Both the position numbers and the translations under genes were made by a program. Positions 698-41,080 of a stretch of DNA of 64,000 nucleotides are shown piece by piece. The stretch is taken from the IMG/VR virus record IMGVR_UViG_644736364_000008; one strand, 5' to 3'. This stretch comes from a virus. Taxonomy: Duplodnaviria; Heunggongvirae; Uroviricota; Caudoviricetes. A model generated the notes under the pieces. It saw only the letters and a program-made list of their open reading frames with translations. It did not search any database and was not told where the DNA came from. Each line of letters starts with the position of its first letter. Position 1 is the first letter of the stretch.

Positions 698-1060
698 GGG
701 GCTGATTCTGGATTCGACGGGATTTGCGAAACCCAAGGTGCATGCCGAGGGGCGGTTGGCCTCGTAAAAAGCCGCAAAAAATAGTCGCAAACGACGAAAA
801 CTACGCTTTAGCAGCTTAATAACCTGCTTAGAGCCCTCTCTCCCTAGCCTCCGCTCTTAGGACGGGGATCAAGAGAGGTCAAACCCAAAAGAGATCGCGT
901 GGAAGCCCTGCCTGGGGTTGAAGCGTTAAAACTTAATCAGGCTAGTTTGTTAGTGGCGTGTCCGTCCGCAGCTGGCAAGCGAATGTAAAGACTGACTAAG
1001 CATGTAGTACCGAGGATGTAGGAATTTCGGACGCGGGTTCAACTCCCGCCAGCTCCACCA
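698..1060 (+). ncRNA. ssrA: tmRNA (transfer-messenger RNA, 363 nt)
   Basis: Begins GGGGCTGATTCTGGATTCGACGGG and ends GGTTCAACTCCCGCCAGCTCCACCA; internal tag-coding region (GCAAACGACGAAAACTACGCTTTAGCAGCTTAA) present; directly downstream of smpB. Confidence 0.93.
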
Positions 1061-1061
1061 A
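1016..1061. repeat. attL: 46-bp direct repeat (3' end of ssrA) flanking the P2-like prophage
   Basis: ATGTAGGAATTTCGGACGCGGGTTCAACTCCCGCCAGCTCCACCAA is repeated exactly at 35112-35157. Confidence 0.8.
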
Positions 1062-3080: not shown

Positions 3081-3562
3081 GACAGCAGCCCTCCCACCGT
3101 TTTACTGATATCGCTTAAGGCAGACGTTGCCGTGTCCTGCAGATTATTCAGTTGCGCACTGAGATCACCGAACATATCGGACAGGGATTCATCCACTCGT
3201 TTGAGCGACAGGGTGAACTCAATCCGGCGCGGCATACCGTCGCGGAAAAACTCCGTTTTAGTCTGATTCAGTCCCTCAATCACATACATGCCGTAAATCG
3301 TGCCGCTGCCTTCAATCAGGGGCCATGCTTTCCCCTGTTCTGCCATCTGCTCCAGTGCCAGCAACGACAGCCTGCCGCCTGTTATTTCCGGCATAAGAAC
3401 ACCGGAAAGCGTCAGCATGTCGTTTTCCGGTCCCAGAAACTGCGTGGACGGACGTCGGTTTACCCGACTGTTTGCCGCATGTCGCCAGCTGCGTTGATAC
3501 TGCAGTTCCTGATACGGAACGGTGCGCAGCATAAACACGTACAATCCCAGCACCATCATCAT
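3077..3562 (-). CDS. Tail protein U (P2 gpU-like)
   Basis: 161-aa ORF between tape measure and gpD, overlapping 4 bp with each neighbour. Confidence 0.8.
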   Translation of the reverse strand: MMMVLGLYVFMLRTVPYQELQYQRSWRHAANSRVNRRPSTQFLGPENDMLTLSGVLMPEITGGRLSLLALEQMAEQGKAWPLIEGSGTIYGMYVIEGLNQTKTEFFRDGMPRRIEFTLSLKRVDESLSDMFGDLSAQLNNLQDTATSALSDISKTVGGLLS

Positions 3563-6500
3563 GCGTCGTATCCCCCCTGATCGCTGTAGTTACTCCTGGC
3601 TTTTGCCTTCAGCCTGCGTTCACGTTCATCAAGCTGGCGTGCCACCTCCCGCGCAATATCCTGCGCACTTTGTCCTGGCTGCGTCTGAATGATGATCTGC
3701 GTCGGTGCCTCAATCCGTTGAACGAGTGGCACAGTGGCTGCGCGACTCACAATTGCTTCTCCACCTTTCGCGGGAAGTGCCAAGGGGTGCAACGGTGGAA
3801 GCTCTGCTGGCGCGGCAGCAACGCCCATCATTCCGGCAACAACGGCAGCCAGTGCAGCTGTATTTCTCCGGCTGGTCACATTTGCCGGGCCGTTAACAAT
3901 TTCCGGCCCGTTTTCACCGACGATGCCAAACTGCCCGCGCGGGATATACCCGCCGCTGTCATACATCCCCGCAAAGCCATATCCCCATGATGGAAAACCA
4001 CCCGATGGCATCATCACTTTACCGTCTGCATTCACCGTCGCAGGTTGCTGACGCGTCACGCTTTCCGGCAGTTTTGCCTTTGCGGCCTCTTTACTGACAA
4101 TGCCGAGCTTCTCCAGCAACCAGGAAACGCCGGATTTCAGGGAGTCCAGCGGATGCATGACCATATTCAGCCCTTCCGCCAGTGCCTCCCCGAATCGCCG
4201 CCCCATTGCCGCTGCGCTCTGCAGTTCGGCAGAGGTCGACTTAACGGGCGTCAGTAGATCAGTAAACCAGCCCCACAGCGCCTGCACTTTGTCGCCAATC
4301 CACTGGAACACGGGCTTAAGCGGTTCGAACGCTGCACTGATGGGACCTGCCGCCGCTTTGAATCCTTCCACCACGCCACCGAGAAATGCGGTGATAGGTT
4401 GCCAGTATTTCCAGACAACCAGCGCCACGCCCGCCAGTGCAGTAACCACAAGACCTATCGGACTGAGCAGAGCACCTAACAGACCAGATATGGCATACAG
4501 GGCAACGCGCAGCATCGCCAGTGGACCAGATGCCAGTACTCGCAGCACCGTGCCTGCGGCGGCCAGTCCACCGCGCAGTACCGCCAGAGGATTCATAAAC
4601 ATCACAGCAACAGCACGTAAACCGGATAATCCAGACCGCAAAAGTGCAACCGGCGCACCTGCTACAGTTTTCAGGACATTTCCCGTCAGTGATGCCGTGC
4701 GGCGCAAAGACGACAACGGCGCAGTAAGTAAACCTGCGGCGTTGCCCGATGAAGCAAGCCCGCGTCGCAGCAGTGCCAGTGGTGCGCCAGCCAGCCAGGA
4801 CAACGCGCTGCTGGTTCGAGTTACTGCTGCCGTAACGGAAGATAACGTTTTGATACCCAACACAGAGAATCCCAGACGGATCACTGCCAGCGGCCCCAGC
4901 ACTGCAGCCAGCGCCACCGCTAAGGTGCCGAGGCCGACGGTAACCGCAGCCACAACAGCCGATGCTTTCATCAGTGTGCCTGTCAGTTCCGGGTTAGCTT
5001 CCACCCAGCGACGCAACGCCCCCGTGACGCTTTTCACCGTGTACAGAATATCCATCAGCGGCTGGCGCAGCGTTTCGCCCAGGCTGCTGAAGGTGTTCTG
5101 CGCTCCGGTTTTGACCAGCAACCACTGCGCAGAAAGTGAATCCTTGTTAATGTCGGATTCTTTCTGCATGGAGCCAAGCGCATCATTGCCCGCTGTCAGT
5201 TTTAACTGACGCTGCAGTTCCGGCAGGTTGTTTGCCAGTTTCGCCGCGTCATCGCCAAACTCTTTACCAAACAACATAGTCATGGCAGACAGGCGCTTGT
5301 CCTGCGGCAGCGCGTTTACCTTCTCCAGCACGCGCTGGATGGTTCCCATCGCATCCTTCGTCATCTGCTTTTCAATCACTTCAGGATTGAGTTTCAGCAG
5401 ATTCATCCCTTCAAAGAAACTCTTGCTTTGCATGGTGGCAATGGACAATTCACGCACCATCGCGTTTGCTGCACTGGCTGCAACCTCTGGCGCAGCGCCC
5501 AGTGTCAGGAAGGTGGAACCCAGCGCCGCCGCTTTACGATAATCCAGACGGTCAGCCACACCGCCCAGACGTTGCATCACATCAATGATGTCTGCCCCTT
5601 TCGACATGGCGTTATCATCCAGATAGTTCAGCGCATCACCGAGCTGTTCAATATTGCGGGTGGGGATTTTGTAGAGCTGGGCGATTTTCCCCAGACTTTC
5701 TGACAGTTCATCCGCTGGCAGCTCAAAGGCTGTTGCCGCCTTTGCTGCCGTACTGGCGAAGGCCAGCAGGTCACGTTTCTGATCTTCCCAGCTGTCGTCA
5801 GGGTTTGCGACGTTCATGCGCGCACCACCTTCAACCAGTGCAGCGAAGTCCACCGCACCGTTTTCCATCGGCAACTGTTCGCTGGCAGCCTTGATGGCAT
5901 CCTGCATTTCATAAAAACGTGCAGTGCGGTTGCCATTATCGTCACGCAGACCACTGACCTGCTTTGCCACACCTTTCATGGCATCTTCCATGCTGGTATA
6001 GCTTTTTACTGCCGCCATCACTGGCGCACCCATTGCCAGCCCTGCAGCCGTGGTGGTGGCTCCGGCACCTGCAATACGATCACGCACCTCCAGCGAACGG
6101 GCATAACTGGCACGCGCTGCATTCATCCTGCGCTGAGCTTCCCCCAGTCGCTTCAGCCGCGCCTCCTGTTTCGAAAGTTCCTGGTTATAACGTGATGTTT
6201 CACGGGCTAAACGGGCAGTTGCTCCCGCATCGTCTTTCGCAGAAATTCCCGCCCGGTACAGTTCAGCACGCACAAGCGCCGTCTGCCGCTGCAGCTTTTT
6301 CTGGCGTTCTTCCAGGCGCTGAACAGCCAGCCGTTGACGGCCCAGAGCAACAACCTGACGTTGCGAAGGCGGCCCCATCGCTCCCAGTTCCTGACTGAGC
6401 AAATTTGCACGCTGGCGGGCATAGTTCAGCCTGTCGCCTAATTTCTGATTTTCTGCCTGCAGCTTTCGGAAGCTGTCCAGACTGCTCCCGGCCTGATCAA

Positions 6501-26624: not shown

Positions 26625-26981
26625 TTAATACAGGTTCCGCCACTGATCATCTTCCTGCAAACGCTGGTTCCGATAGAAGATACGCAGGCCTGCTCCTGAC
26701 GGAATACTGCCTCCGCGAAGGAGTAAATCGACCTCTTTCTCGCTGCCATCAAATCCTCTGGACTTCAGCTCATACACGAGCTGCAGTCGCTGATGGTCTG
26801 TAATTCGCTGTTTGTAGTCTTTACGCCGTTTCGGTTTCACCAGGCGTAACCTTGCTGCCAGTTCCCGGCGCTCTTTTTTGCTCATACTGTGCAGGTAATC
26901 GTGCAACTCCTTGTCATCCATGCTGGTAATGTCCGTTCTGGGGTCCCCATCAGCTGATTTATCTTTCTCCTGTTGGTTCAA
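26625..26981 (-). CDS. 118-aa ORF, possibly the displaced C-terminal part of replication protein A
   Basis: Begins at a TTG right at the A stop; becomes in-frame with A if one copy of the 26-bp tandem repeat is removed. Confidence 0.45.
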
Positions 26982-29065
26982 ATTTTCAGCAAGGGGACAG
27001 TTATTGCCACGAGTCCAAGGGGACAGTTATTGCCACGAGTCCAAGGGGCGCAAGCGCCCTGGTCGGCTGCCGCCTCCTGAATGTCAACGGCCTTACGAAC
27101 CATTTTCCACTTCACCGCATGAGTGCAGATCTTGCCCTCTGCAATGGGTGACCAGATGCCATAAATACGAATACCGTGATCGCCATAGGCGGTCGGCTCT
27201 TCGTTGATTTCATAAGCGGTTCTGATGAGGTGATATTTGCGGGGAACCAGTACGCCGCCCTGCTTCATGATGTAGGTGGCAAAACAACCAGCATCAGCAG
27301 CGGCTAGGATGGCATCAAGGCGCGGGTTATCCAGTACCGGCGCACCTGCTTTTTTGTCCCCCTGTTGCCTTGCCGCCTGACCAGCCAGCAATCGCAGTTC
27401 ACGGTAAGCCTGACGCCCCGGAATGCCAAAGAAGCGGAATTGCTGAACACGATGCAGAGACGCCCAGGCATTAACGTATTCAGCGTTATCACGCAGGGAT
27501 TTACCCGTTTCCTTGCTGATCTCGCCAGCCAGACCACGCCCGTCAATGTTCTTACTGATGTATTTCGCGATGTAGCTTGTTGGCGTACCTTTGCGCGGGT
27601 TTATCAGCTCAGACTTAAAGCGTGGTTCCGTGTTATTACCCAGCTCCTCGCGGTCTTCACGAATGGCAAACTTACGCAACAAAGCAGTAATGGCGCGGCG
27701 ATCTTTTTTGCGCATAAAACACAACAGGTGCCAGTGAACTGTACCGTCATGATGCGGCTCAGCCACCCGCACGCCATACCAGCGTAATCCGGCTTTGTGC
27801 ATCGCCTTACGAAATGCAGCAAACATACCGACCAGATAATCACTGCTTTGTCTTACCGTCGCATTTGTCCAGGTCGGGTTGGGCCTGCCGTTATTTAGCG
27901 TGGAATGGAAACGTGACGGACAGGTGATGGTGTAGAAAACGGCGCAGTCACCGCGCATTTCCGCGATAAGCTCCAGACCTTTAACACAGGCCATCATCTC
28001 ATTGCGGCGATGCGCAGGGTTGCTGCTGCTGGCGTTTACCACGTCTTCCATATCCAGCGTGTCGCCGTCTTCGTTCACCAGTTCATGAGAACGGAAAAAC
28101 TCCAGCGACTTACGGCGCTGCTCACGTTTATGCATCACGGCTTCATAGCTGACATAGGGAGATGCTTTTTTGCTGACCAGGCAAACAGCACGCAACTGCT
28201 CTTCCCGCCATTCGCAACGCATCTTCCATAATTTCCGATACCACCAGTCGGCGCATAACATACGCGCCAGCGAACCCGGAATGAGTTCATAAGGCACGGG
28301 TTTACGGCGGTTTCTTTTCCGACGGAGTTGCTCAAACGCAGGCGGGATAACATCCAGACGCAGGGTTTCCGCTGCCACCTTTTCCCATGTTTTGCGGATT
28401 TCTTCTGGCTTAATGTCATCGGTGGCATACAAATCACCACAAGCTGCATCAAGGCACATGCTCATATGCGCGGCGACAAGGGTAGACAGGCGCTTCACCT
28501 GATCCTGACTCATTTCAGGCAGGATCAGCAGGCCGTCCAGCCCTTCATGGCTTGCCATAAAGCGAAAAGAAGTGGATAGCTGACAGTCGCGTACATGCTC
28601 CAGTCGTTCCAGACATGGCTTAATCGTCTCACGCAAATAGCGGGAATAAGCCTTTGGCCTGCCCAGGCTGCTGAAGTATTCAATACGTTGCATCAGCGGC
28701 TTGCTGATATGGGAAGGCTGGGCGTTAACGTCCGCCAGAATGACCATGTCTGGATTAAAACGCTGCTGCTCATGCGCCAGCTTTGCCCGGCTAATGAGCT
28801 TATCCTGCTCCATTTCGCGTTGGACAGGATCACGGGATTCATTAAAGAAATAACGCTCCCAGGCCTGATCACTCAGTGCCTCGCGGCGCAGCTGTTCCTG
28901 CTCGTTATCGGCAGCGTACAGAGTGATCAGGTTTGAAAGCGCAGAAACCGGCGCGACTTCCGCCGGGTCCAGATAAGGGTTAATGGCCTTTTTCGGGCTG
29001 TTCCATGAGAACGCTGCGGCAGCCTCGTTAAAGCCGCAGCAGTTGTTCATATCGGCATGACTCAT
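26978..29065 (-). CDS. Replication initiation endonuclease A (rolling-circle, P2 gpA-like)
   Basis: 695-aa ORF containing the YIAKYISK active-site tyrosine pair. Confidence 0.85.
26991..27048. repeat. Perfect 26-bp tandem duplication (2.2 copies) at the 3' end of gene A
   Basis: AAGGGGACAGTTATTGCCACGAGTCC repeated head-to-tail, then AAGGGG. Confidence 0.85.
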
Positions 29066-29919
29066 GCACGTACTCCGTACACGGCTGAACTATCCACGCC
29101 ACGCGAATAATCAAATCCCACCCAGCAGCGTGTCCCGGAAACAGCGATGATTTCTGTTGCAGATTTACTCTCACCAGCTGCTACGCCGATGCTGCGTTTT
29201 GCCTTGATGTAGTGGTGAGTAAAATTGCGATACAGCGAACGGATCAGGGATGTGTCACTGTTAGAAACAATGACCGGATGTCCTTCTGATGACCGATGTT
29301 CAAGAAGGGATGCCAGGTGATACTGGTCATCTTCAGTGAAGCCGTCAGTGTGATAGTCGGAAAACGTACCGTCATAAGGCGGATCGCAATACACCACATC
29401 CCCCGCCTTCAACATCGCCAGCGTTTCATCAAAGCTGGCGCATATAAACGTTGCCCGCTGGGCTTTCTCTGCAAATGCGCGAATTTCTTTTTCAGGGAAA
29501 TACGGATTTTTATAATTACCGTACGGAATGTTGAAATGCCCGCTCTTGTTATAGCGACATAACCCACGGTAACCATGACGATTGAGATACAGGAAATATA
29601 CCGCTTTCATGAAATCAGTAATTTCAATGGAGTAATTAAACTCCTGCCTTATGTTGTAATAAGCCACATCCCTGTTTGCTTCCTCAAATAAAGCTCTGGC
29701 ACGAGATATAAACGCCTCGCAATCAGCAGCAACCTTTTTATAGAGGTTGATTAAATCAGGATTAATATCCGCAACAAGATAGCTGGGGTAATCCGTCTCC
29801 ATCATCACAGCACAGGAACCCGCGAAAGGTTCAACCAGTCGCGAGCCAGCAGGAAGATGTTTTTTCAGTTCGGACATAATGGCGGTTTTATTTCCCGCCC
29901 ATTTCAGGATGGTGCTCAT
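29062..29919 (-). CDS. DNA adenine methyltransferase (Dam-like, orphan)
   Basis: [11 protein letters not shown]...FAGSCAV (AdoMet motif) ... DPPY (motif IV); ATGA overlap with the upstream gene and 4-bp overlap with A. Confidence 0.85.
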
Positions 29920-32112: not shown

Positions 32113-32745
32113 ATGTTAAACATCAGAATGGGTTCCGATACGGGAGGTAAGGCAGCTATTGAGAGGCTGCTTGAGGCTTATGGATTCACAACTAAGCAGG
32201 CATTAAGCGAGCACCTGAATGTCTCAAAAAGTACTATGGCAAACAGAGTGTTACGTGACAGTTTTCCTGCTGACTGGATAATTCAGTGTGCACTAGAAAC
32301 CGGTGTTTCGTTACTTTGGTTAGCCACTGGACAGGGAAGCATGAAAGAAGGATACGAGTCTGAGAAAAGATCTCATAACGAGAACAAACAAGCAATTAAA
32401 CCGTTATCCAAACTCATAACTCCATCTATTCCTAAAGGAACCTTGGAAAATGGACAACTCAGTATTGATGAAGAGATTTTCCTAGACCACAGCATATTAC
32501 CTGCAGATTATGAAGAATCGATGTTCTTAGAAACCCCTACTGATTGTTATCTCATCGATAAATCAGTTAAACAAGTCAGCAATGGATTCTGGCTTATCAA
32601 TATTGATGGAATGATTATTATTGCAAAAATCATGCGGATTCCCGGCAATAAGATTGTAGTAAATCAAGATGAAGCGTCTTTCGAGTGCTCTGCCGATGAT
32701 GTGGAAGTTATTGGGCGTGCAGTCAAAGTAATAAAGAGTATCTAA
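32113..32745 (+). CDS. cI: CI immunity repressor (186 type)
   Basis: 210-aa ORF with N-terminal HTH-like region, upstream of int. Confidence 0.75.
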   Translation: MLNIRMGSDTGGKAAIERLLEAYGFTTKQALSEHLNVSKSTMANRVLRDSFPADWIIQCALETGVSLLWLATGQGSMKEGYESEKRSHNENKQAIKPLSKLITPSIPKGTLENGQLSIDEEIFLDHSILPADYEESMFLETPTDCYLIDKSVKQVSNGFWLINIDGMIIIAKIMRIPGNKIVVNQDEASFECSADDVEVIGRAVKVIKSI

Positions 32746-32747
32746 AC

Positions 32748-33767
32748 ATGACTGTCAGAAAACAGCCAAACGGTAAATGGTTGTGCGAGTGCTATCCCAA
32801 TGGACGCAATGGCAAGCGCGTGCGTAAGCAATTTGCTACGAAAGGCGAAGCCATTGCTTTTGAAAGCTTCACAATGGAAGAAGTGAACAAAAAACCATGG
32901 CTGGGGGAAAAGGAAGATCGGCGACACCTATCAGAATTAATTGAGCAGTGGTATTCCCTGTATGGTCAAACACTCGCAGACCCCAAGCGCCTCATAGCGA
33001 AACTTAGAATTATCTGTAATGGTCTAGGCGATCCCATCGCTTCAGAACTGACAGCCGGTGACTTTACGAAATACCGCGAAGCACGGTTAAAAGGTGAAGT
33101 ACGAAATGAAGATGGCACGTTTATGTCGCCCGTTAAGCCCCGCACGGTAAACCTTGAACAGCGCAATCTATCATCTGTTTTTGGTACACTGAAAAAGCTG
33201 GGCCACTGGTCAGCCCCCAACCCGCTTGCTGGGCTGCCAACATTTAAAATTGCTGAGAGTGAATTGGCGTTCCTGACCCCGGAAGAAATTAAACGTCTGC
33301 TGGATGCCTGCGCCGATTCTCAAAGCTCCAGCCTGCTTTTGATTGCAAAAATATGCCTGGCCACCGGCGCACGCTGGAGCGAAGCCGAAAACCTGCAGAG
33401 TCATCAGGTATCAAAATACCGTATCACTTATACCAAGACCAAAGGCAAGAAAAACCGAACTGTGCCTATTTCTAAGGATTTATATGAAGAACTGCCTAAG
33501 AATAGGGGGAAGTTATTCACCCCATGCAGAAAAGCCTTTGAGCGTGCAGTAAAGCGAGCCGGTTTAGAACTACCAGAAGGCCAATGTACCCATGTTCTGC
33601 GCCATACATTTGCCAGTCATTTTATGATGAACGGTGGAAATATACTGGTACTGCGCGATATTCTTGGACATGCCGATATAAAAATGACGATGATTTACGC
33701 TCATTTTTCCCCAGATCATCTTGAAGATGCAGTAACTAAAAACCCATTAGCAACCTTGATGGATTAA
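32748..33767 (+). CDS. int: Tyrosine integrase
   Basis: 339 aa with HVLRHTFASH...LGHADIKMTMIYAHF catalytic-region motifs. Confidence 0.9.
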   Translation: MTVRKQPNGKWLCECYPNGRNGKRVRKQFATKGEAIAFESFTMEEVNKKPWLGEKEDRRHLSELIEQWYSLYGQTLADPKRLIAKLRIICNGLGDPIASELTAGDFTKYREARLKGEVRNEDGTFMSPVKPRTVNLEQRNLSSVFGTLKKLGHWSAPNPLAGLPTFKIAESELAFLTPEEIKRLLDACADSQSSSLLLIAKICLATGARWSEAENLQSHQVSKYRITYTKTKGKKNRTVPISKDLYEELPKNRGKLFTPCRKAFERAVKRAGLELPEGQCTHVLRHTFASHFMMNGGNILVLRDILGHADIKMTMIYAHFSPDHLEDAVTKNPLATLMD

Positions 33768-33771
33768 GCAC

Positions 33772-34995
33772 ATGCGCAACATTATCGAATTAGAACAGAT
33801 ATCGGAAGAACTAAAAAAACATGAACTATTGCAACCCCCATTCATTGCCGAGGGAAAACTAATTTCTGACTTTTCTAAGAGAGTCGAGTGCTATTTAGAA
33901 TTAATTGACTCCATTAGAAATAAATATCCTGACAACGAGATAATTAAACAAGTAAAGATTCGCACAAAATCAATAATATATTTATCTGATAAAATAATAG
34001 AAACTCTTAAGCTATTTTTAATAGGAAATGTTAAAGAAGCTTATAAAAAATTCGATTTGGCAATTACCAAGTCATCAATGCATACTCATCTTTATAAGAT
34101 GACTGTTCCTCTAACTAAATTATGCAACCCACACACCCCTTTATTTCGCGTAAGGAAAAGTGAGTGCATCCTAAAACAAAGAGAAGAATTATTTCATATA
34201 CCATTTAAAAATAGACATTTAGTTAGCGCACAAAGATTTTCTGTATCCGGTCTTCCATGTTTATATCTTGGAACATCAATATTTGTATGTTGGCAAGAAA
34301 TGGGAAAACCTGACTTTGATAAACTTTACATATCTTCCTTCATATCCGATAAAGAAAATTCAAATATAAGAATTTTAGATCTTGGGTACAATTTAACATC
34401 TGCACTTCGTACAAAACCGGGAGATCTTTGGTATTCATTCGAACAAGGTTCAGATGATGATTACGATCTAAATAATGATAATTTCATGGATCAAATTAAT
34501 GATAAAATTTCAAAGTTGATTGCATGGCCTTTAGTCCTTGCATGTAACTATACAAAAGATAATGAAAACGCAAGTTTTAATAAAGAATACATAATACCAA
34601 ACCTATTAATGCAATGGATTAGTAGTGACAGAAACAAAAATATATCAGGGATATCGTATCGATCAACAAAGATATTAAACCAAAAAGATAGCGATATTGG
34701 GATTAATGTAATTATCCCCCCAAAAATAGAAAACATAGTTGAAACCAATGATACCCACTGTCCTGTTTTAAAAAAAATATTTAGAGTTACAAACCCTGTT
34801 TCCTGGACTGTGTTTAGTACACTAGAAGCCACCCCCTATCTATACAAAAATAATTTTAATTTTTCGACCTATAATCCCGCAAAAGGATGGATTGAAGACT
34901 TTGATGAATCCCTTGTTGAACATTATGAAAATACCACTTTTAGAAAAGTTGAACTCCTTATTCATCAAATGATGAAGTATGAATATTTAAAATAA
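33772..34995 (+). CDS. RES-domain protein (407 aa), candidate NAD+-targeting toxin/abortive-infection effector
   Basis: LFRVRK...AQRFSVSGLPCLYLGTSIFVCWQE...IRILDLGYNLTS parallels RES toxin motifs (YRY...GGRWNPP..FPAIYLADS...E...LAVLDLT in MbcT); low-GC; 4 bp after int stop. Confidence 0.6.
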   Translation: MRNIIELEQISEELKKHELLQPPFIAEGKLISDFSKRVECYLELIDSIRNKYPDNEIIKQVKIRTKSIIYLSDKIIETLKLFLIGNVKEAYKKFDLAITKSSMHTHLYKMTVPLTKLCNPHTPLFRVRKSECILKQREELFHIPFKNRHLVSAQRFSVSGLPCLYLGTSIFVCWQEMGKPDFDKLYISSFISDKENSNIRILDLGYNLTSALRTKPGDLWYSFEQGSDDDYDLNNDNFMDQINDKISKLIAWPLVLACNYTKDNENASFNKEYIIPNLLMQWISSDRNKNISGISYRSTKILNQKDSDIGINVIIPPKIENIVETNDTHCPVLKKIFRVTNPVSWTVFSTLEATPYLYKNNFNFSTYNPAKGWIEDFDESLVEHYENTTFRKVELLIHQMMKYEYLK

Positions 34996-35111: not shown

Positions 35112-35157
35112 ATGTAGGAATTTCGGACGCGGGTTCAACTCCCGCCAGCTCCACCAA
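35112..35157. repeat. attR: second copy of the 46-bp ssrA 3'-end repeat
   Basis: Exact repeat of 1016-1061. Confidence 0.8.
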
Positions 35158-35284
35158 TCATGATTGGACGGTGTAAGGACAACACCAACAAAAACAGGAA
35201 GTTAGAAGTCTCAGCAGGACACCGACCAGACGGTGAGGAGACATAAAAGGATACGCAAAGGAGCCGCGGCTCCGAAGTGAAATG

Positions 35285-35310
35285 AAAGCCCGCTGATGCG
35301 GGCTTTTTTG
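35285..35310 (+). terminator. Rho-independent terminator
   Basis: GCCCGC-TGAT-GCGGGC followed by TTTTTT. Confidence 0.5.
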
Positions 35311-35735
35311 CTTCTTCTCTTTAGCCTGATTCGACACTCTCAATGCGGCCATAAACAACAACCCACTTTTCTTATACCGTAGCCTGTCCCCCTCTTCCTG
35401 CTTTCTAACCATAACAGATGTGAGCGTTTGCTATGAGCGATATATAGTCATTCGTACCCTCCGATACTAATCATCACAGAAATTAATATATTCATTCCTT
35501 ACTGAAAAGCTATGAAGTAGATATATAGGATTGGGGCGCGTATGGCACTGGACAGTTATGCATCTCCGAATATTATTCCGGAGCTAAGACAACCGAATGC
35601 CGCAGCAGGTAAGATCACGCTAGGGGGGCTGGACAGAATGGCTGTTACGCCCAGTGTGAAGAAAAGAAGGCTAAGTATGGTAGAATTTCCATACGCACAG
35701 ACCTTGTTATCCGACTATACAGCCTGGAAGGCACT

Positions 35736-36524
35736 ATGACAAATCTACAACTGGAAGAAAGATTTAGGGCGCTTGAGAAAGATTACGATGCGCTCATTTC
35801 CACAAAATATACTGCGCAGAACGTTCTCACTCACACTATGGAAACCTATGTTGATTCTGGTAAATATAAAAACTGGATCGCCAGAGTGAAAAAGTTAATA
35901 GAGGACAGCTACGGAAAAGAGTCTGATTATTACAATGACTTCAATACTGTAAACAGCAGGTGGTCTTCTAATTACAATACACTGATCAAAAGTTATAAAC
36001 CGTTGTTTGATGCGGCGAGAGATGATCTTGCGCACTCTGCTGTCAGTACTAATACTCCTCAAGAAGGTTCGCCGCTGAGCCTCGTACTTAATATTCTTAA
36101 CAGGTTTCCGACCTTTGTTCGCCAGTTAAAGAGGCGGTACAACGGCCGTGCGCCGCTTGAAGTTAATGATGAGTATGACGTACAGGATTTGATTTATGCA
36201 CTGCTGACGCTTCATTTTAATGATATTAGGGCGGAAGAGTATACCCCCAGCTTTGCGGGCGCGGCCTCAAGACAGGACTTTCTTTTGAAAAAAGAGAAAA
36301 TTGTGATAGAGGTGAAGAAAACCCGTGAATCTCTGGGAGCGGGTAAAGTTGGTGGAGAGTTGCTTATTGATATGGCGCGCTACCGCGCTCACCAAGACTG
36401 CGATACGTTGATCTTGTTTGTATATGACCCGGATTGCTACATAAATAATCCTTTGGGCGTGAAAACCGATCTGGAATCTAAAGACGCGGAAGGAAAAGTG
36501 AAGGTTGTTATTGCGCAGTTCTGA
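35736..36524 (+). CDS. Hypothetical protein with PD-(D/E)xK-like nuclease signature
   Basis: 262 aa; GGAAGG RBS; C-terminal half has DIRAEEYTP ... KIVIEVKKT (D...E-x-K pattern); N-terminal coiled-coil. Confidence 0.5.
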   Translation: MTNLQLEERFRALEKDYDALISTKYTAQNVLTHTMETYVDSGKYKNWIARVKKLIEDSYGKESDYYNDFNTVNSRWSSNYNTLIKSYKPLFDAARDDLAHSAVSTNTPQEGSPLSLVLNILNRFPTFVRQLKRRYNGRAPLEVNDEYDVQDLIYALLTLHFNDIRAEEYTPSFAGAASRQDFLLKKEKIVIEVKKTRESLGAGKVGGELLIDMARYRAHQDCDTLILFVYDPDCYINNPLGVKTDLESKDAEGKVKVVIAQF

Positions 36525-36557
36525 CACGCTTAAGTGTCACCTTACAGGATTAGGTTT

Positions 36558-36606
36558 GCGGCCGTGCCAGCAGGACGAGCATGAAAAAGGCCGCTGGCAC
36601 GGCCGG
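36558..36606. terminator. Long hairpin between convergent genes
   Basis: 12-bp perfect inverted repeat GGCCGTGCCAGC ... GCTGGCACGGCC. Confidence 0.4.
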
Positions 36607-36611
36607 ATTTG

Positions 36612-36905
36612 TCATCTTTGCCAGGTCAAATCAAAATCTACGTGAAAATCCGCAGGCTTAAGCTCGCAACTGCCACCACGCCCAATTAACGACGTTATGT
36701 TTACAACGTTTGAACCTGTTGAGATGGCAAGTTGAGTGTCATCTGTAAACGTGATGATTAGCATTTCAGTCTGATGAACCTGTACTCCAGTTTTCTGAAA
36801 ACCAATCTGGACAGATTTCACCGTTTTCCCAACCATTTCACGGGCTTGATTGATAGAGTAATTAGCTTCAACTTGTAGGTCATTCCTGAACTTGGGTAGT
36901 GTCAT
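36612..36905 (-). CDS. Hypothetical small protein (97 aa)
   Basis: ORF downstream of, and same strand as, the GIY-YIG gene. Confidence 0.45.
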   Translation of the reverse strand: MTLPKFRNDLQVEANYSINQAREMVGKTVKSVQIGFQKTGVQVHQTEMLIITFTDDTQLAISTGSNVVNITSLIGRGGSCELKPADFHVDFDLTWQR

Positions 36906-37115
36906 TTTACATCCTCTTTAGTGAAGTTTTCGCTATTTAAATCAGCAGCATTCCTTTTAAATCACTGGCATGTCAGCAGTGGATAGTCTGAGTGTAACGT
37001 CCAGTGAGGGGAATAAATATTGGTCAGACTTTGCACAAAAGAGCCAACTATCGCGGGCTCTCTCTCATCATGTGCGAAAATTGACCACAATATGAAATCC
37101 AGTTCCATTCCGAAA

Positions 37116-37940
<825 letters not shown>

Positions 37941-38043
37941 TCAATTGACAACTTATAATCCCTACTAGTTAGCATTATGATTTCCAGAGTGAGGAATATA
38001 AAAATCTCTGTTTCTGGCACATAACAGCCCTTAAGATCGTAGC

Positions 38044-38096
38044 TCGCCATCATGGGGTGTCGGGGGGCGGAGGTTCAAATCCTCTCGTGCCGACCA
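38044..38096 (+). tRNA. Partial tRNA-Pro (3' fragment only; anticodon region to CCA)
   Basis: CATGGGGTGTCGGGGGGCGGAGGTTCAAATCCTCTCGTGCCGACCA matches the 3' part of tRNA-Pro(GGG); no complementary 5' acceptor strand (CGGCACG) upstream. Confidence 0.6.
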
Positions 38097-38110
38097 AAAA
38101 TCCCTTAAGA

Positions 38111-38137
38111 ACCAGCCTATTATGGCTGGTTTTTTTA
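38111..38137 (+). terminator. Rho-independent terminator after the tRNA fragment
   Basis: ACCAGCC-TATTAT-GGCTGGT followed by TTTTTTT. Confidence 0.55.
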
Positions 38138-38337
38138 TGATTGTTTTTTATGCGGAGAAATACCGGGGAATAATTGGGGTAAAACACCTTTAGGCTATTC
38201 ACTTAGCCTACCACCATCAAAATCTTTCCGAATGTATCCATCTCTTTTTTCTTATGCAGCTAAAACGAAGTCTTGATACTGTTTATTTACACAGATAAGA
38301 ATAATACTGTCTACAAACGCAGTACAAAAGAAGTGTT

Positions 38338-38517
38338 ATGCGTATTGAGATCTCCATAGCCAAAGACAAAATGACCAAATGCCAAACGGCGCTGTGGACG
38401 CGTTAAAGGAAGAATTAACCCAACACATTGGCAAGCGTTATGACGATGTGGAGATGATCGTAAAAGCCACCAGCAACGATAGTTTTTCAGTTAGACATAC
38501 TGCAGATAAAGATTGAG
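38338..38517 (+). pseudogene. dinI-like gene interrupted by a frameshift
   Basis: Frame 1 [16 protein letters not shown]... stops after 22 codons; a shifted frame continues ...[32 protein letters not shown], together resembling DinI. Confidence 0.45.
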
Positions 38518-38880
38518 CTAAAACTTTCGTTCAGGAAACTCTGAATGATACCTGAGAGTCTACTGAAGAGTTGTTTGTTCACTAGTTAGCACGTAGGAAA
38601 TCATTCAATACTCGCACTATCGGAAGTTCACCAGCCAGTCGTAGCACGTCCTTGCAAACGACGTGCCTACGGTTTCAATCACCTCTCACCATCAATTCTA
38701 TCAATAATAATTAAACAGCGCCTAGACAAAATAAATAACAACAAGTCAACAACCTCGACAGGATGCCGATGGGATGATGAAGAGATAAGAAAGAATAACC
38801 AGTAAAGCCCTAAAACGTCAGCGTTCAGACGCGTTTTTTACTTAATCGGTAACAAATACGTTGTATCATAGCAAAATAAA

Positions 38881-40830
38881 ATGATTGTTCTAAATCAGAT
38901 TAACTCCTCACTTTTGTACAATGTCGCTTACAGGTATACCATGAAATCCGAGACGCTAACTGTCCAACAACTTTTTCAAGACCGCCGACAATACTGTGTT
39001 CCATTCTATCAACGTGCCTATGTATGGACTCAGCAAGACCAGTGGTCAGCTCTACTGGAGGATATCCTAGAGAAAGTACAATCCCGGCTCTCGGGTACAA
39101 AACCAACTCCCCATTTCCTTGGTGCGGTTGTACTGGAACCTCAATCAAAAAAAGGATTATTAGGTGTAGATTCCATACATATTATTGATGGTCAGCAACG
39201 ATTGACCACTCTTCAATATGTTCTGGCATCCATCCGATTAGCATTACGTGCTACGGATCTTTCCAGCTTAGAGGCTCTCATTTCGCCTTGCCTGAAAAAC
39301 TCAAACGAAGACACAATGCGAAATAAAGAAGTAGAACGCTTCAAACTGTGGCCAACTTTTCGGGATCAAACTCATTTTATTCAAAGTTTTAATGTTGAAA
39401 ATATTGACGATCTCCGGGACGTATTCTCTGATAGTTTCACGCAGCATGGTACGTTGCGTAAGCATTTTAATCACCCGCCATCACTAGAAGCATTATGTTT
39501 TTTTACTGAAGCCTTTATAAAATGGATTAAAATAGAAAACCACTCACCACAAGAAAATGCTGTAGCTCTAATTGAGGCTGTCTTAACAGATCTGAAACTG
39601 GTAAGCATATTTCTCGAAGCTGAAGATGATGCCCAAATAATTTTTGAAACATTAAATGGGCGAGGGGCGGAACTTCATGCTACGGATCTTATTCGCAACT
39701 ATATCTTTATGTGCGCTGAGCATGAAAATATTAATGCTATTGAATTATATGAAAATGAGTGGAAGAGCTTTGAAGATAAATACTGGTCGGAAAAACAACG
39801 CCGTGGACGTATTAATAAACCACGCATGGAGTGGCTAGTACATGCGACATTGCAATCAGAAAGGCAACGTGAAATTGATCTGTCTCGCCTTTACAATGAG
39901 TATCGTGATTATGTAAGTAAGGACTTGTCTTCACAACGAGCAGATCTGCAAGTAAAGCGCCTCAAACAATATGCATCACAATATAAAGAATTGGTTGATG
40001 GTTTTGGCACAACCCCCATCTCACACTTTGGATATCGCATCGCAGACTATGATGTGACGACACTTTATCCGCTTGCTTTGTTCATTTCGATAGCTAACAT
40101 CGCTGATGATGAGAAAGCAGCCATGTATAATGATCTTGTCTCCTACGTAGTACGAAGAGCCGTATGTGGCCTGACGCCAAAGAATTACAACAATGTATTT
40201 ATGAATGTATTGCGGCACTTGGCTAAAACGGAAATTTCCAGTGTTGAGTTACGTAATATCCTCAATAACTTAAATGGCGAAGCCTCACGTTGGCCTGGTG
40301 ACTCAGAATTTCTCAACGCTTGCATCAATGCTCCACTTTATCCTGGCAGGCTCGACGCACCGAAAATGCGCTCAATGTTAACGGAACTTGAAAGAGAACT
40401 TTGTCGCCAAGTAAAGACAGAAAAGCCTGATGTTCCAAATCTTTCTAATCTCGATATCGATCATCTTATGCCTCAAAGTTGGTATTCCTGTTGGCCTCTC
40501 GAAAATGGTCGTATGGTGACAAATTCAGATGCTACGGTATTGAACCAAATTGTTCTGTCTGGAACCGATCTTACCCCTGAACAGCTACTGGTAAGGAAAC
40601 GGCAACAAGCGATATCTACTTTGGGAAATCTAACTTTGCTTAACCTTAGCGTAAACCGTTCTGTTCAGAATGCTGTATTTCTGAAAAAACGTGATGCTCT
40701 CATCGTCCACACCAATCTACGACTGAACATTCCACTTATAGTTAAGGATAAATGGGATGAGGATGAAATCCTGGAGCGGGGTAAAAAGTTGGGGGAAATT
40801 GCATTGAAAGTATGGCCAAAACACGATTAA
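38881..40830 (+). CDS. GmrSD-family type IV restriction endonuclease (DUF262 + DUF1524/HNH-like)
   Basis: N-terminal IIDGQQRLTTLQY (DGQQR motif) and C-terminal DIDHLMPQSW ... GNLTLLNLSVNRSVQN His-Me finger motifs; alternative start at 38941. Confidence 0.75.
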   Translation: MIVLNQINSSLLYNVAYRYTMKSETLTVQQLFQDRRQYCVPFYQRAYVWTQQDQWSALLEDILEKVQSRLSGTKPTPHFLGAVVLEPQSKKGLLGVDSIHIIDGQQRLTTLQYVLASIRLALRATDLSSLEALISPCLKNSNEDTMRNKEVERFKLWPTFRDQTHFIQSFNVENIDDLRDVFSDSFTQHGTLRKHFNHPPSLEALCFFTEAFIKWIKIENHSPQENAVALIEAVLTDLKLVSIFLEAEDDAQIIFETLNGRGAELHATDLIRNYIFMCAEHENINAIELYENEWKSFEDKYWSEKQRRGRINKPRMEWLVHATLQSERQREIDLSRLYNEYRDYVSKDLSSQRADLQVKRLKQYASQYKELVDGFGTTPISHFGYRIADYDVTTLYPLALFISIANIADDEKAAMYNDLVSYVVRRAVCGLTPKNYNNVFMNVLRHLAKTEISSVELRNILNNLNGEASRWPGDSEFLNACINAPLYPGRLDAPKMRSMLTELERELCRQVKTEKPDVPNLSNLDIDHLMPQSWYSCWPLENGRMVTNSDATVLNQIVLSGTDLTPEQLLVRKRQQAISTLGNLTLLNLSVNRSVQNAVFLKKRDALIVHTNLRLNIPLIVKDKWDEDEILERGKKLGEIALKVWPKHD

Positions 40831-41080
40831 TGCAATTAATAAAATGATTATAGTGGCCTTACATTAGTAAGGCCGCTACTCACTATTAAATACTTTAATT
40901 TGCATCAAGAACAGCAGTGTCAGCCCTAGGTCTCGGACTTTGTACCGCTTATCTTGTCTTCAAAAATCAGCTCGCATCCTGCACAGTTCAGCGCATTACG
41001 TTGTAGATCTGTGTTCTGGTCATTTGTTGACACACGTACATAGCCAATAAGCATGGTAGATCTCCCTGACAAAAGCAGGA

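Follow-up and report, generated by a model that had tools for sequence, protein, structure and literature searches.

What does the low-GC gene that lies between the integrase and the right attachment site of a P2-like prophage encode, and could its product act alone, as a RES-domain enzyme with no antitoxin at its side? The question arises from a 64,000-nucleotide stretch of viral DNA (the window; IMG/VR record IMGVR_UViG_644736364_000008), in which a sequence-only reading had singled out a large RES-like protein as integrase-proximal cargo. The gene occupies positions 33772..34995 of the + strand, is complete, opens with ATG and encodes 407 amino acids followed by a stop codon; its extent, its place between int and attR and its low GC content (approximately 0.30-0.31, vs 0.45-0.53 in the surrounding prophage flanks) are as that reading described them. 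The product is identical to WP_001244285.1 of E. coli MS7163, where it is annotated as 'hypothetical protein', and matches the PHROGs family phrog_7835, of unknown function (E = 5e-180). NCBIfam and PADLOC yielded zero matches for the protein, and literature searches for YopC (its homologue in phage SPbeta), WP_001244285 and phrog_7835 returned no relevant result.

A first search gave 296 homologues, and an exhaustive one gave 2,738 representatives after clustering at 50% identity; since they are mostly 360-420 aa in length and are matched end to end, the open reading frame corresponds to a real gene and not to a chance occurrence. The small ORF on the opposite strand (34548-34832), regarded from the start as noise, was rejected as a gene: 24% of codon-shuffled versions have an open stretch of 94 codons or more on the antisense strand, which places this ORF within chance expectation, and its length is not conserved among homologues.

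The prophage and its presumed lysogenic transcription unit

The element is delimited by a 46-bp exact repeat of the 3' end of the tmRNA gene (ssrA, 698-1060). The left prophage boundary, attL, lies at the 3' end of this gene (1016..1061) and the identical right copy, attR, at 35112..35157, so that the window holds a prophage of approximately 34 kb integrated in ssrA. It is of the P2-like, or Fels-2-like, type (Peduoviridae). The Prophage CI repressor gene (32113..32745, +), whose counterparts in orthologous loci carry the Pfam domains Phage_CI_repr and Phage_CI_C, is the first gene of a presumed cI-int-RES lysogenic operon; the tyrosine integrase gene, int (32748..33767, +), begins 2 nt past it, and is itself separated from the RES-like gene by a 4-nt spacer (GCAC). 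The latter is the last prophage gene, its stop codon standing 117 bp from attR; the integrase coordinates and the att repeat thus bear out the earlier statement that it starts 4 bp past int and has attR downstream. To the left are genes for a cox/apl-type excisionase, CII, Fil, DUF2732, a DksA-like protein, Dam, and gpA.

Neither the gap between int and the ORF nor the stretch from the ORF to attR contains a terminator-like site, and this layout fits a lysogenic transcript that probably includes cI, int, and the ORF. The first terminator-like site on the + strand past these genes is a strong bidirectional intrinsic-terminator-like hairpin at 35284-35307 (GAAAGCCCGC...GCGGGCTTTT), approximately 130 bp beyond attR; the lysogenic transcript could therefore read through attR. 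The window is identical to sequence of E. coli MS7163, a urine isolate, and the combination of int and this ORF occurs in only 3 of 5,426 complete E. coli genomes. According to RefSeq, the gpA homologue of MS7163 (replication endonuclease; - strand, at window positions of approximately 26,700-29,100, calculated from the locus offset) is frameshifted, so that the prophage may be replication-defective (cryptic), with the cI-int-RES module retained. Directly past attR lies a second ssrA island (35158-41000), which encodes a 262-aa hypothetical protein (35736-36524, +), a 97-aa ORF (36612-36905, -), a LEM-3-like GIY-YIG protein (37116-37922, -), a DinI-like pseudogene, and a DUF262 (GmrSD-like) protein; it looks like a defence-type island adjoining the prophage.

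A RES core with unrelated flanks

The match of the window protein to the Pfam RES profile (PF08808) reaches 12.2 bits (E = 0.19), below the gathering score of 23.2 bits, and spans aa 141-205 and profile positions 11-75. Among enterobacterial homologues, 30 of 45 show the same sub-threshold match, and so do 46 of the 126 distant ones, the lowest E being 7.6e-6; the top score among individually scanned family members (22.4 bits) belongs to YopC of the Bacillus phage SPbeta. The profile search suggested by the sequence-only reading thus failed at the cut-off for the window protein itself, and found its support in the recurrence of the match among homologues.

The most informative comparison is provided by the aRES proteins, stand-alone RES-domain proteins that are encoded in defence islands without an operonic partner (Osterman et al., bioRxiv 10.64898/2026.01.28.702374, January 2026). 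Three of these, from E. coli UC5, K. pneumoniae, and Enterobacter chengduensis, protect E. coli from diverse phages with growth arrest; they deplete NAD+, generating nicotinamide and ADPR-1''-phosphate, and defence is abolished by point mutations of the predicted active-site residues R182, R184, R215, Y225, E236, and S334 (bioRxiv 10.64898/2026.01.28.702374). With sequences taken from Table S4 of that preprint, BLASTP aligned window residues 124-327 with residues 180-364 of aRES-UC5 (25% identity, E = 7e-8). Alignment by hhalign of the window family (126 sequences) with the aRES family (24 sequences) gave a probability of 92.3% (E = 5.6e-7); when the same comparison was performed by domain, the RES cores gave 93.4%, the N-terminal domains 0.7%, and the C-terminal tails 0.6%.

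The core of the window protein displays the RES/ART three-dimensional fold, an assignment supported both by the recurring sub-threshold RES match and by the direct alignment with aRES. The catalytic domain takes up aa ~119-345 (34126..34806, +), and the fold reaches to approximately residue 327-345, beyond residues 120-205. The original description had placed approximately 115 N-terminal and 175 C-terminal residues outside the core; the core and the N-terminal part (aa 1-118) hold, but only ~60-80 C-terminal residues lie outside, most of the 'unknown' 175 being the second half of the RES fold, and the domain limits are corrected accordingly. Within the domain, a low-confidence, poorly conserved acidic insert is encoded at 34387-34506 (aa 206-245, +). 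The only long stretch with pLDDT below 50, the acidic, Asp/Asn-rich LWYSFEQGSDDDYDLNNDNF (34426-34473, aa 219-234), sits in this insert, between the two halves of the fold; aRES proteins also have an insert at the equivalent position.

The motifs on which the RES assignment was initially based, LFRVRK, AQRFSVSGLPCLYLGTSIFVCWQE, and IRILDLGYNLTS, are all present in the translation, and all six residues mutated in aRES are conserved. R126 and R128, on the 'LFRVRK' strand (R-V-R codons 34147..34155, +), align to aRES R182 and R184. R155, Y165, and E176 ('QRFSVSGLPCLYLGTSIFVCWQE', 34234..34299, +), which provide the R and E of the RES motif and the NAD-binding Tyr, align to R215, Y225, and E236. 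S298 ('YRSTK') and N312 ('GINVIIP'), both encoded within 34663..34707 (+), align to S334, the S of the RES motif, and to N349. The R, E, S motif and the NAD-binding Arg and Tyr are thus represented in full by R126, R128, R155, Y165, E176, and S298. R155, Y165, and E176 do not vary in any of the 124 full-length members (124/124), which come from many phyla; R128 is kept in 123 (99%) and R126 in 119 (96%), being otherwise K; position 298 is S in 113 (91%) and T in 10, and N312 is present in 120.

The R155-x9-Y165-x10-E176 spacing mirrors R47-x10-Y58-x10-E69 of MbcT, whose toxicity requires R47 and Y58 (PMC6436930); R128 is probably the counterpart of MbcT R27, in region 1. Profile searches of the PDB with two alignments of the window family picked up no RES chains, only spurious helical-bundle matches to the N-terminal domain, and phmmer of the aRES RES domain against the PDB found nothing, so that the mapping of residues onto MbcT relies on spacing and on the aRES alignment.

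The regions that surround the core differ from those of aRES. The N-terminal domain (aa 1-118; 33772..34125, +) is all-alpha, with AF2 helices spanning residues 2-109 at pLDDT 90-98, and is proposed to be a regulatory or sensor module, while the C-terminal extension (aa 346-407; 34807..34992, +) is unrelated to the aRES C-terminus. Mean pairwise identity within the family is 45-67% for the RES core, 20-32% for the N-terminal domain, 19-36% for the C-terminal tail, and 11-15% for the insert; the core is thus approximately twice as conserved as the peripheral parts, and the insert is the least conserved part of the family. Such a variable periphery, as read from these alignments, is the pattern that would be expected if peripheral parts contacted fast-changing partners. 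A profile search with the N-terminal domain by itself, which addressed its possible shuffling onto other effectors, returned two family fragments.

The aRES N-terminus consists of a Zn-ribbon (CxxC...CxxC) followed by HEPN_RES_NTD1 (PF18870), and aRES membership was defined by hhsearch matches to RES and to PF18870, the latter at 80% or more (bioRxiv 10.64898/2026.01.28.702374). The window protein has no CxxC...CxxC Zn-ribbon, and PF18870 was absent from it and from approximately 170 family members by hmmscan (the preprint's own criterion uses hhsearch), whereas the aRES controls scored 21-41 bits on PF18870 and 53-55 bits on RES, as compared to at most ~22 bits for RES in the window family. 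In databases, PF08808 is precomputed for aRES homologues, alone or together with PF18870, and their NCBI name is 'RES family NAD+ phosphorylase', whereas members of the window family have no precomputed Pfam match and are named 'hypothetical'. The homologue lists of the two families do not overlap. 'Bacillus subtilis', whose phage SPbeta carries yopC, is absent from the gene list of the preprint, and the window family was therefore evidently missed by the aRES pipeline. The likenesses are nevertheless considerable: both families consist of stand-alone proteins of ~400-460 aa, with homologous RES cores, and both are found in Enterobacteria and in many other phyla, often near defence genes. The window protein itself, at 407 aa, falls within the 300-600 aa that characterize stand-alone aRES proteins, lacks an operonic partner, and has its active-site residues intact. 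Since the cores are homologous, the flanks unrelated, and PF18870 missing, the window protein belongs to a sister family and not to aRES as defined.

The full-length architecture, with N- and C-terminal extensions, is conserved across phyla. The isolated phages RE2010, Cartapus, and SopEPhi carry a family gene at the matching position, annotated as 'putative RES protein, NAD+ binding domain' in Cartapus and as orfY, 'similar to YopC', in SopEPhi; the SPbeta member, yopC, encodes 442 aa (3683-5011, NC_001884.1).

Partners, and the slot between int and the attachment site

Known Xre-RES toxins (MbcT, P. putida Res, NatT, VPA0770, ParT) are single-domain proteins of 140-250 aa that are always accompanied by an upstream Xre/MbcA/ParS-type antitoxin which plugs the active site. 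The window protein has approximately 180 extra residues (407 aa, in a family that is typically 360-420 aa), a similarity to RES that lies under the Pfam threshold, and no adjacent co-oriented antitoxin gene, having int and cI upstream and attR downstream. In order to search for a partner more widely, a one-genome-per-species scan based on a 17-sequence alignment was performed, which identified 262 relatives; neighbourhoods were taken from the best 80 of these, which belong to Proteobacteria, Bacteroidota, Acidobacteriota, Planctomycetota, Firmicutes, Myxococcota, and others. Genes in the fetched loci were called by a crude longest-ORF heuristic, which generates spurious ORFs in high-GC contigs.

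Clustering of neighbours in these best 80 of 262 relatives revealed two recurrent contexts only, the P2-like cI-int arrangement (8 loci) and a Bacteroidota block (7 loci). BLAST clustering of small flanking ORFs in the same set, YopB included, yielded no conserved family; a Pfam scan of 62 small ORFs lying upstream on the same strand in the 80 loci found no HTH family, YopB serving as a positive control (HTH_26, 3.6e-17); and scans of 143 larger neighbours together with these 62 ORFs pointed to no conserved partner. Enterobacterial homologues at 70% and 42% identity also occupy the cI-int-X-attR position, with unrelated genes past att, and a Serratia homologue stands alone in a chromosomal, non-phage context. 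The absence of a visible antitoxin partner, noted at the outset for the window, thus holds in all three neighbour searches, and a consistent Xre-type antitoxin next to homologues was not seen, with SPbeta yopB-yopC as the exception. There, yopB (75 aa, Cro/C1-type HTH, 3348-3575) lies 108 bp upstream of yopC on the same strand, and is the sole HTH neighbour seen in the family. YopB may be a regulator peculiar to that lineage, or a partner akin to an antitoxin; only its HTH domain was detected, and no MbcA/ParS-type toxin-binding domain.

In the Bacteroidota block, a conserved co-oriented set of genes approximately 4 kb upstream of the RES-like gene, the pair encoding an AAA_21/AAA_15 ATPase (~580 aa) and an HNH protein (~293 aa) has a Septu-like appearance. 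The block continues with a GHKL ATPase (~507 aa, MzaB-like according to PADLOC), a 220-aa protein, and the RES-like gene (365 aa), which overlaps the 220-aa gene by 14 nt. This arrangement may represent a multi-gene defence system with the RES-like protein as effector. Near the distant members are R-M genes of types I and IV and PbeA, mad2, SNF2, and STAND genes, but housekeeping genes too, and the association with defence genes, taken from a neighbour listing with crude gene calling, is suggestive.

The position of the gene was examined in 80 viral contigs from IMG/VR whose integrase is 89-97% identical to that of the window, by inspecting the interval from int to the ssrA att core. This slot is empty (146-147 bp) in approximately 17 of the 80 loci and holds the RES-like family in 22, with alleles 37-94% identical to that of the window, which makes this family the commonest slot cargo in ssrA-integrating P2-like prophages of E. 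coli, Salmonella, and Klebsiella. A family of 251-380 aa fills it in 15 loci and one of 506-514 aa in 8, both with no assigned function and not in PADLOC; the latter is probably the family of gp49 (516 aa) from Klebsiella phage ST437-OXA245phi4.1. Three loci contain a defence gene of the dCTP-deaminase type (PADLOC E = 2e-146) and 1 contains an Argonaute-associated REase-like gene, the other filled slots holding small multi-gene cassettes or single genes that occur once or twice. A two-gene cassette of 261 plus 255 aa is recurrent in the slot; this cassette and the 251-380-aa and 506-514-aa families are candidates for uncharacterised defence genes. With its att repeats, its fixed gene order, and contents that vary from empty to at least seven cargo types across the 80 loci, the slot behaves as a cargo hotspot.

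The int-att interval has been reported as a minor defence hotspot of P2-like phages, accounting for 3% of P2 systems (NAR 2026, PMC13586616). The int-att slot and the P2 accessory hotspots described previously (Rousset et al. 2022, PMC9122126; PMC13586616) have in common variable cargo at a fixed position in conserved prophages, but the main hotspots are in the tail region and in the gpA-gpQ interval, whereas the RES-like cargo is located between int and att. Word searches of PMC9122126 and PMC13586616 found no mention of the RES-like family.

Possible mechanism, competing explanations, and novelty

Taken together, these observations make it fairly likely, in our judgement, that the gene encodes a stand-alone RES enzyme carried as int-att cargo of a Fels-2/P2-like prophage and functioning as a self-contained, NAD+-cleaving abortive-infection protein. 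In the lysogen, the gene would probably be co-transcribed with cI and int, and its product would stay inactive as long as the cell is healthy. Upon sensing of infection by another phage, the RES site would cleave NAD+, probably by phosphorolysis to nicotinamide and ADPR-1''-phosphate as in aRES and MbcT; the resulting depletion of NAD+ would halt the infected cell's growth and so prevent the phage from propagating. The N-terminal helical domain, the insert, and the C-terminal tail would provide autoinhibition and/or recognition of the trigger, replacing a separate antitoxin. Such an organization would resemble that of DSR1/DSR2 SIR2 proteins and of TIR or SEFIR effectors, in which an NAD+-destroying domain is joined to domains that hold it off until a phage is sensed (the trigger being the tail tube protein for DSR2); DSR1/DSR2 and TIR effectors, however, employ a SIR2 or TIR fold and generate ADPR, whereas the window protein has an ART/RES fold and its expected product is ADPR-1''P.

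The same fold could serve a narrower chemistry. In an alternative that we consider unlikely, the protein would be a protein- or nucleic-acid-directed ADP-ribosyltransferase with a specific host or phage target, and not a bulk depleter of NAD+, with a possible role in exclusion or lysogenic conversion; the RES toxin ParT, which modifies Prs, offers a model for such an activity. Nevertheless, no detectable relative is closer in sequence than the aRES proteins, whose activity depletes NAD+ with ADPR-1''P as product, and the R...Y...E spacing matches that of the NAD+ phosphorylase MbcT, both of which argue for the NAD+-cleaving reading. That the protein is an orphan or remnant Xre-RES toxin, having lost its antitoxin or being neutralized in trans by CI or another HTH protein, with a role in prophage addiction, appears very unlikely. 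The yopB-yopC pair of SPbeta and the fact that in P2-like prophages the gene always follows those of the HTH repressor CI and of int are what could be expected of it, but the 62 small upstream ORFs without HTH, the conservation of neighbours in two lineage-specific contexts only, the YopB protein without a detected MbcA/ParS-type domain, and the solitary chromosomal Serratia homologue all speak against it, as do a length of 2-3 times that of TA-type RES toxins and an architecture kept in full across phyla. A degraded TA module as the main explanation was rejected, given that none of the neighbour searches found a conserved partner.

The gene could also benefit the phage that bears it, as a counter-defence or host-takeover enzyme that destroys NAD+-derived immune signals or reprograms metabolism at induction. 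Enzymes that handle NAD+ or ADPr in counter-defence do exist in phages (PMC9503650), and the isolated phages RE2010, Cartapus, SopEPhi, and SPbeta carry the gene. Its location in the lysogenic cI-int unit and outside the lytic genes, the occupation of the same slot in other loci by a known defence gene (dCTP deaminase), the many homologues that are chromosomal, non-phage, and placed beside R-M and other defence genes, and the defensive nature of the closest characterised relatives nevertheless render this explanation the least probable of those considered here.

With the NAD+-cleaving abortive-infection protein as the preferred reading, the central idea of a stand-alone RES protein as an anti-phage NADase, already contained in the sequence-only reading, is correct but no longer new, owing to the aRES preprint; the interpretation given there is supported in part. 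Judging from its sequence relationships, the window protein most likely represents a sister type of the aRES defence system. The novelty lies in the family itself, which is large (2,738 clusters at 50% identity) and distinct from aRES, combines an aRES-like core with unrelated flanks, is typically int-att cargo of prophages, and is invisible to Pfam, NCBIfam, and PADLOC. More tentatively, and with some doubt on our part, it may be another class of stand-alone antiphage RES proteins, put together independently of aRES ('type II aRES'), whose N-terminal domain, variable insert, and C-terminal tail would constitute a new built-in sensor and autoinhibitor for a phage cue other than that of aRES; its different surface might also let it escape aRad1-type inhibitors that target aRES.

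If the abortive-infection reading is confirmed, the known architectural space of RES-based immunity would be roughly doubled, and a function would be assigned to a widespread 'hypothetical protein' family that includes phrog_7835, SPbeta YopC, and Salmonella SopEPhi orfY. It would also imply that the transcript carrying cI and int in the lysogen serves prophages for the expression of an abortive-infection effector. Two families with a common catalytic core and unrelated regulatory domains offer a natural comparison for the study of how an NAD+-cleaving domain is controlled without an antitoxin. A minor point concerns the preprint Methods, which give the accession of the RES Pfam family as 'PF00808', a number that denotes a histone-fold family; the intended entry is evidently PF08808 (bioRxiv 10.64898/2026.01.28.702374); the mix-up matters for anyone reproducing the aRES detection pipeline.
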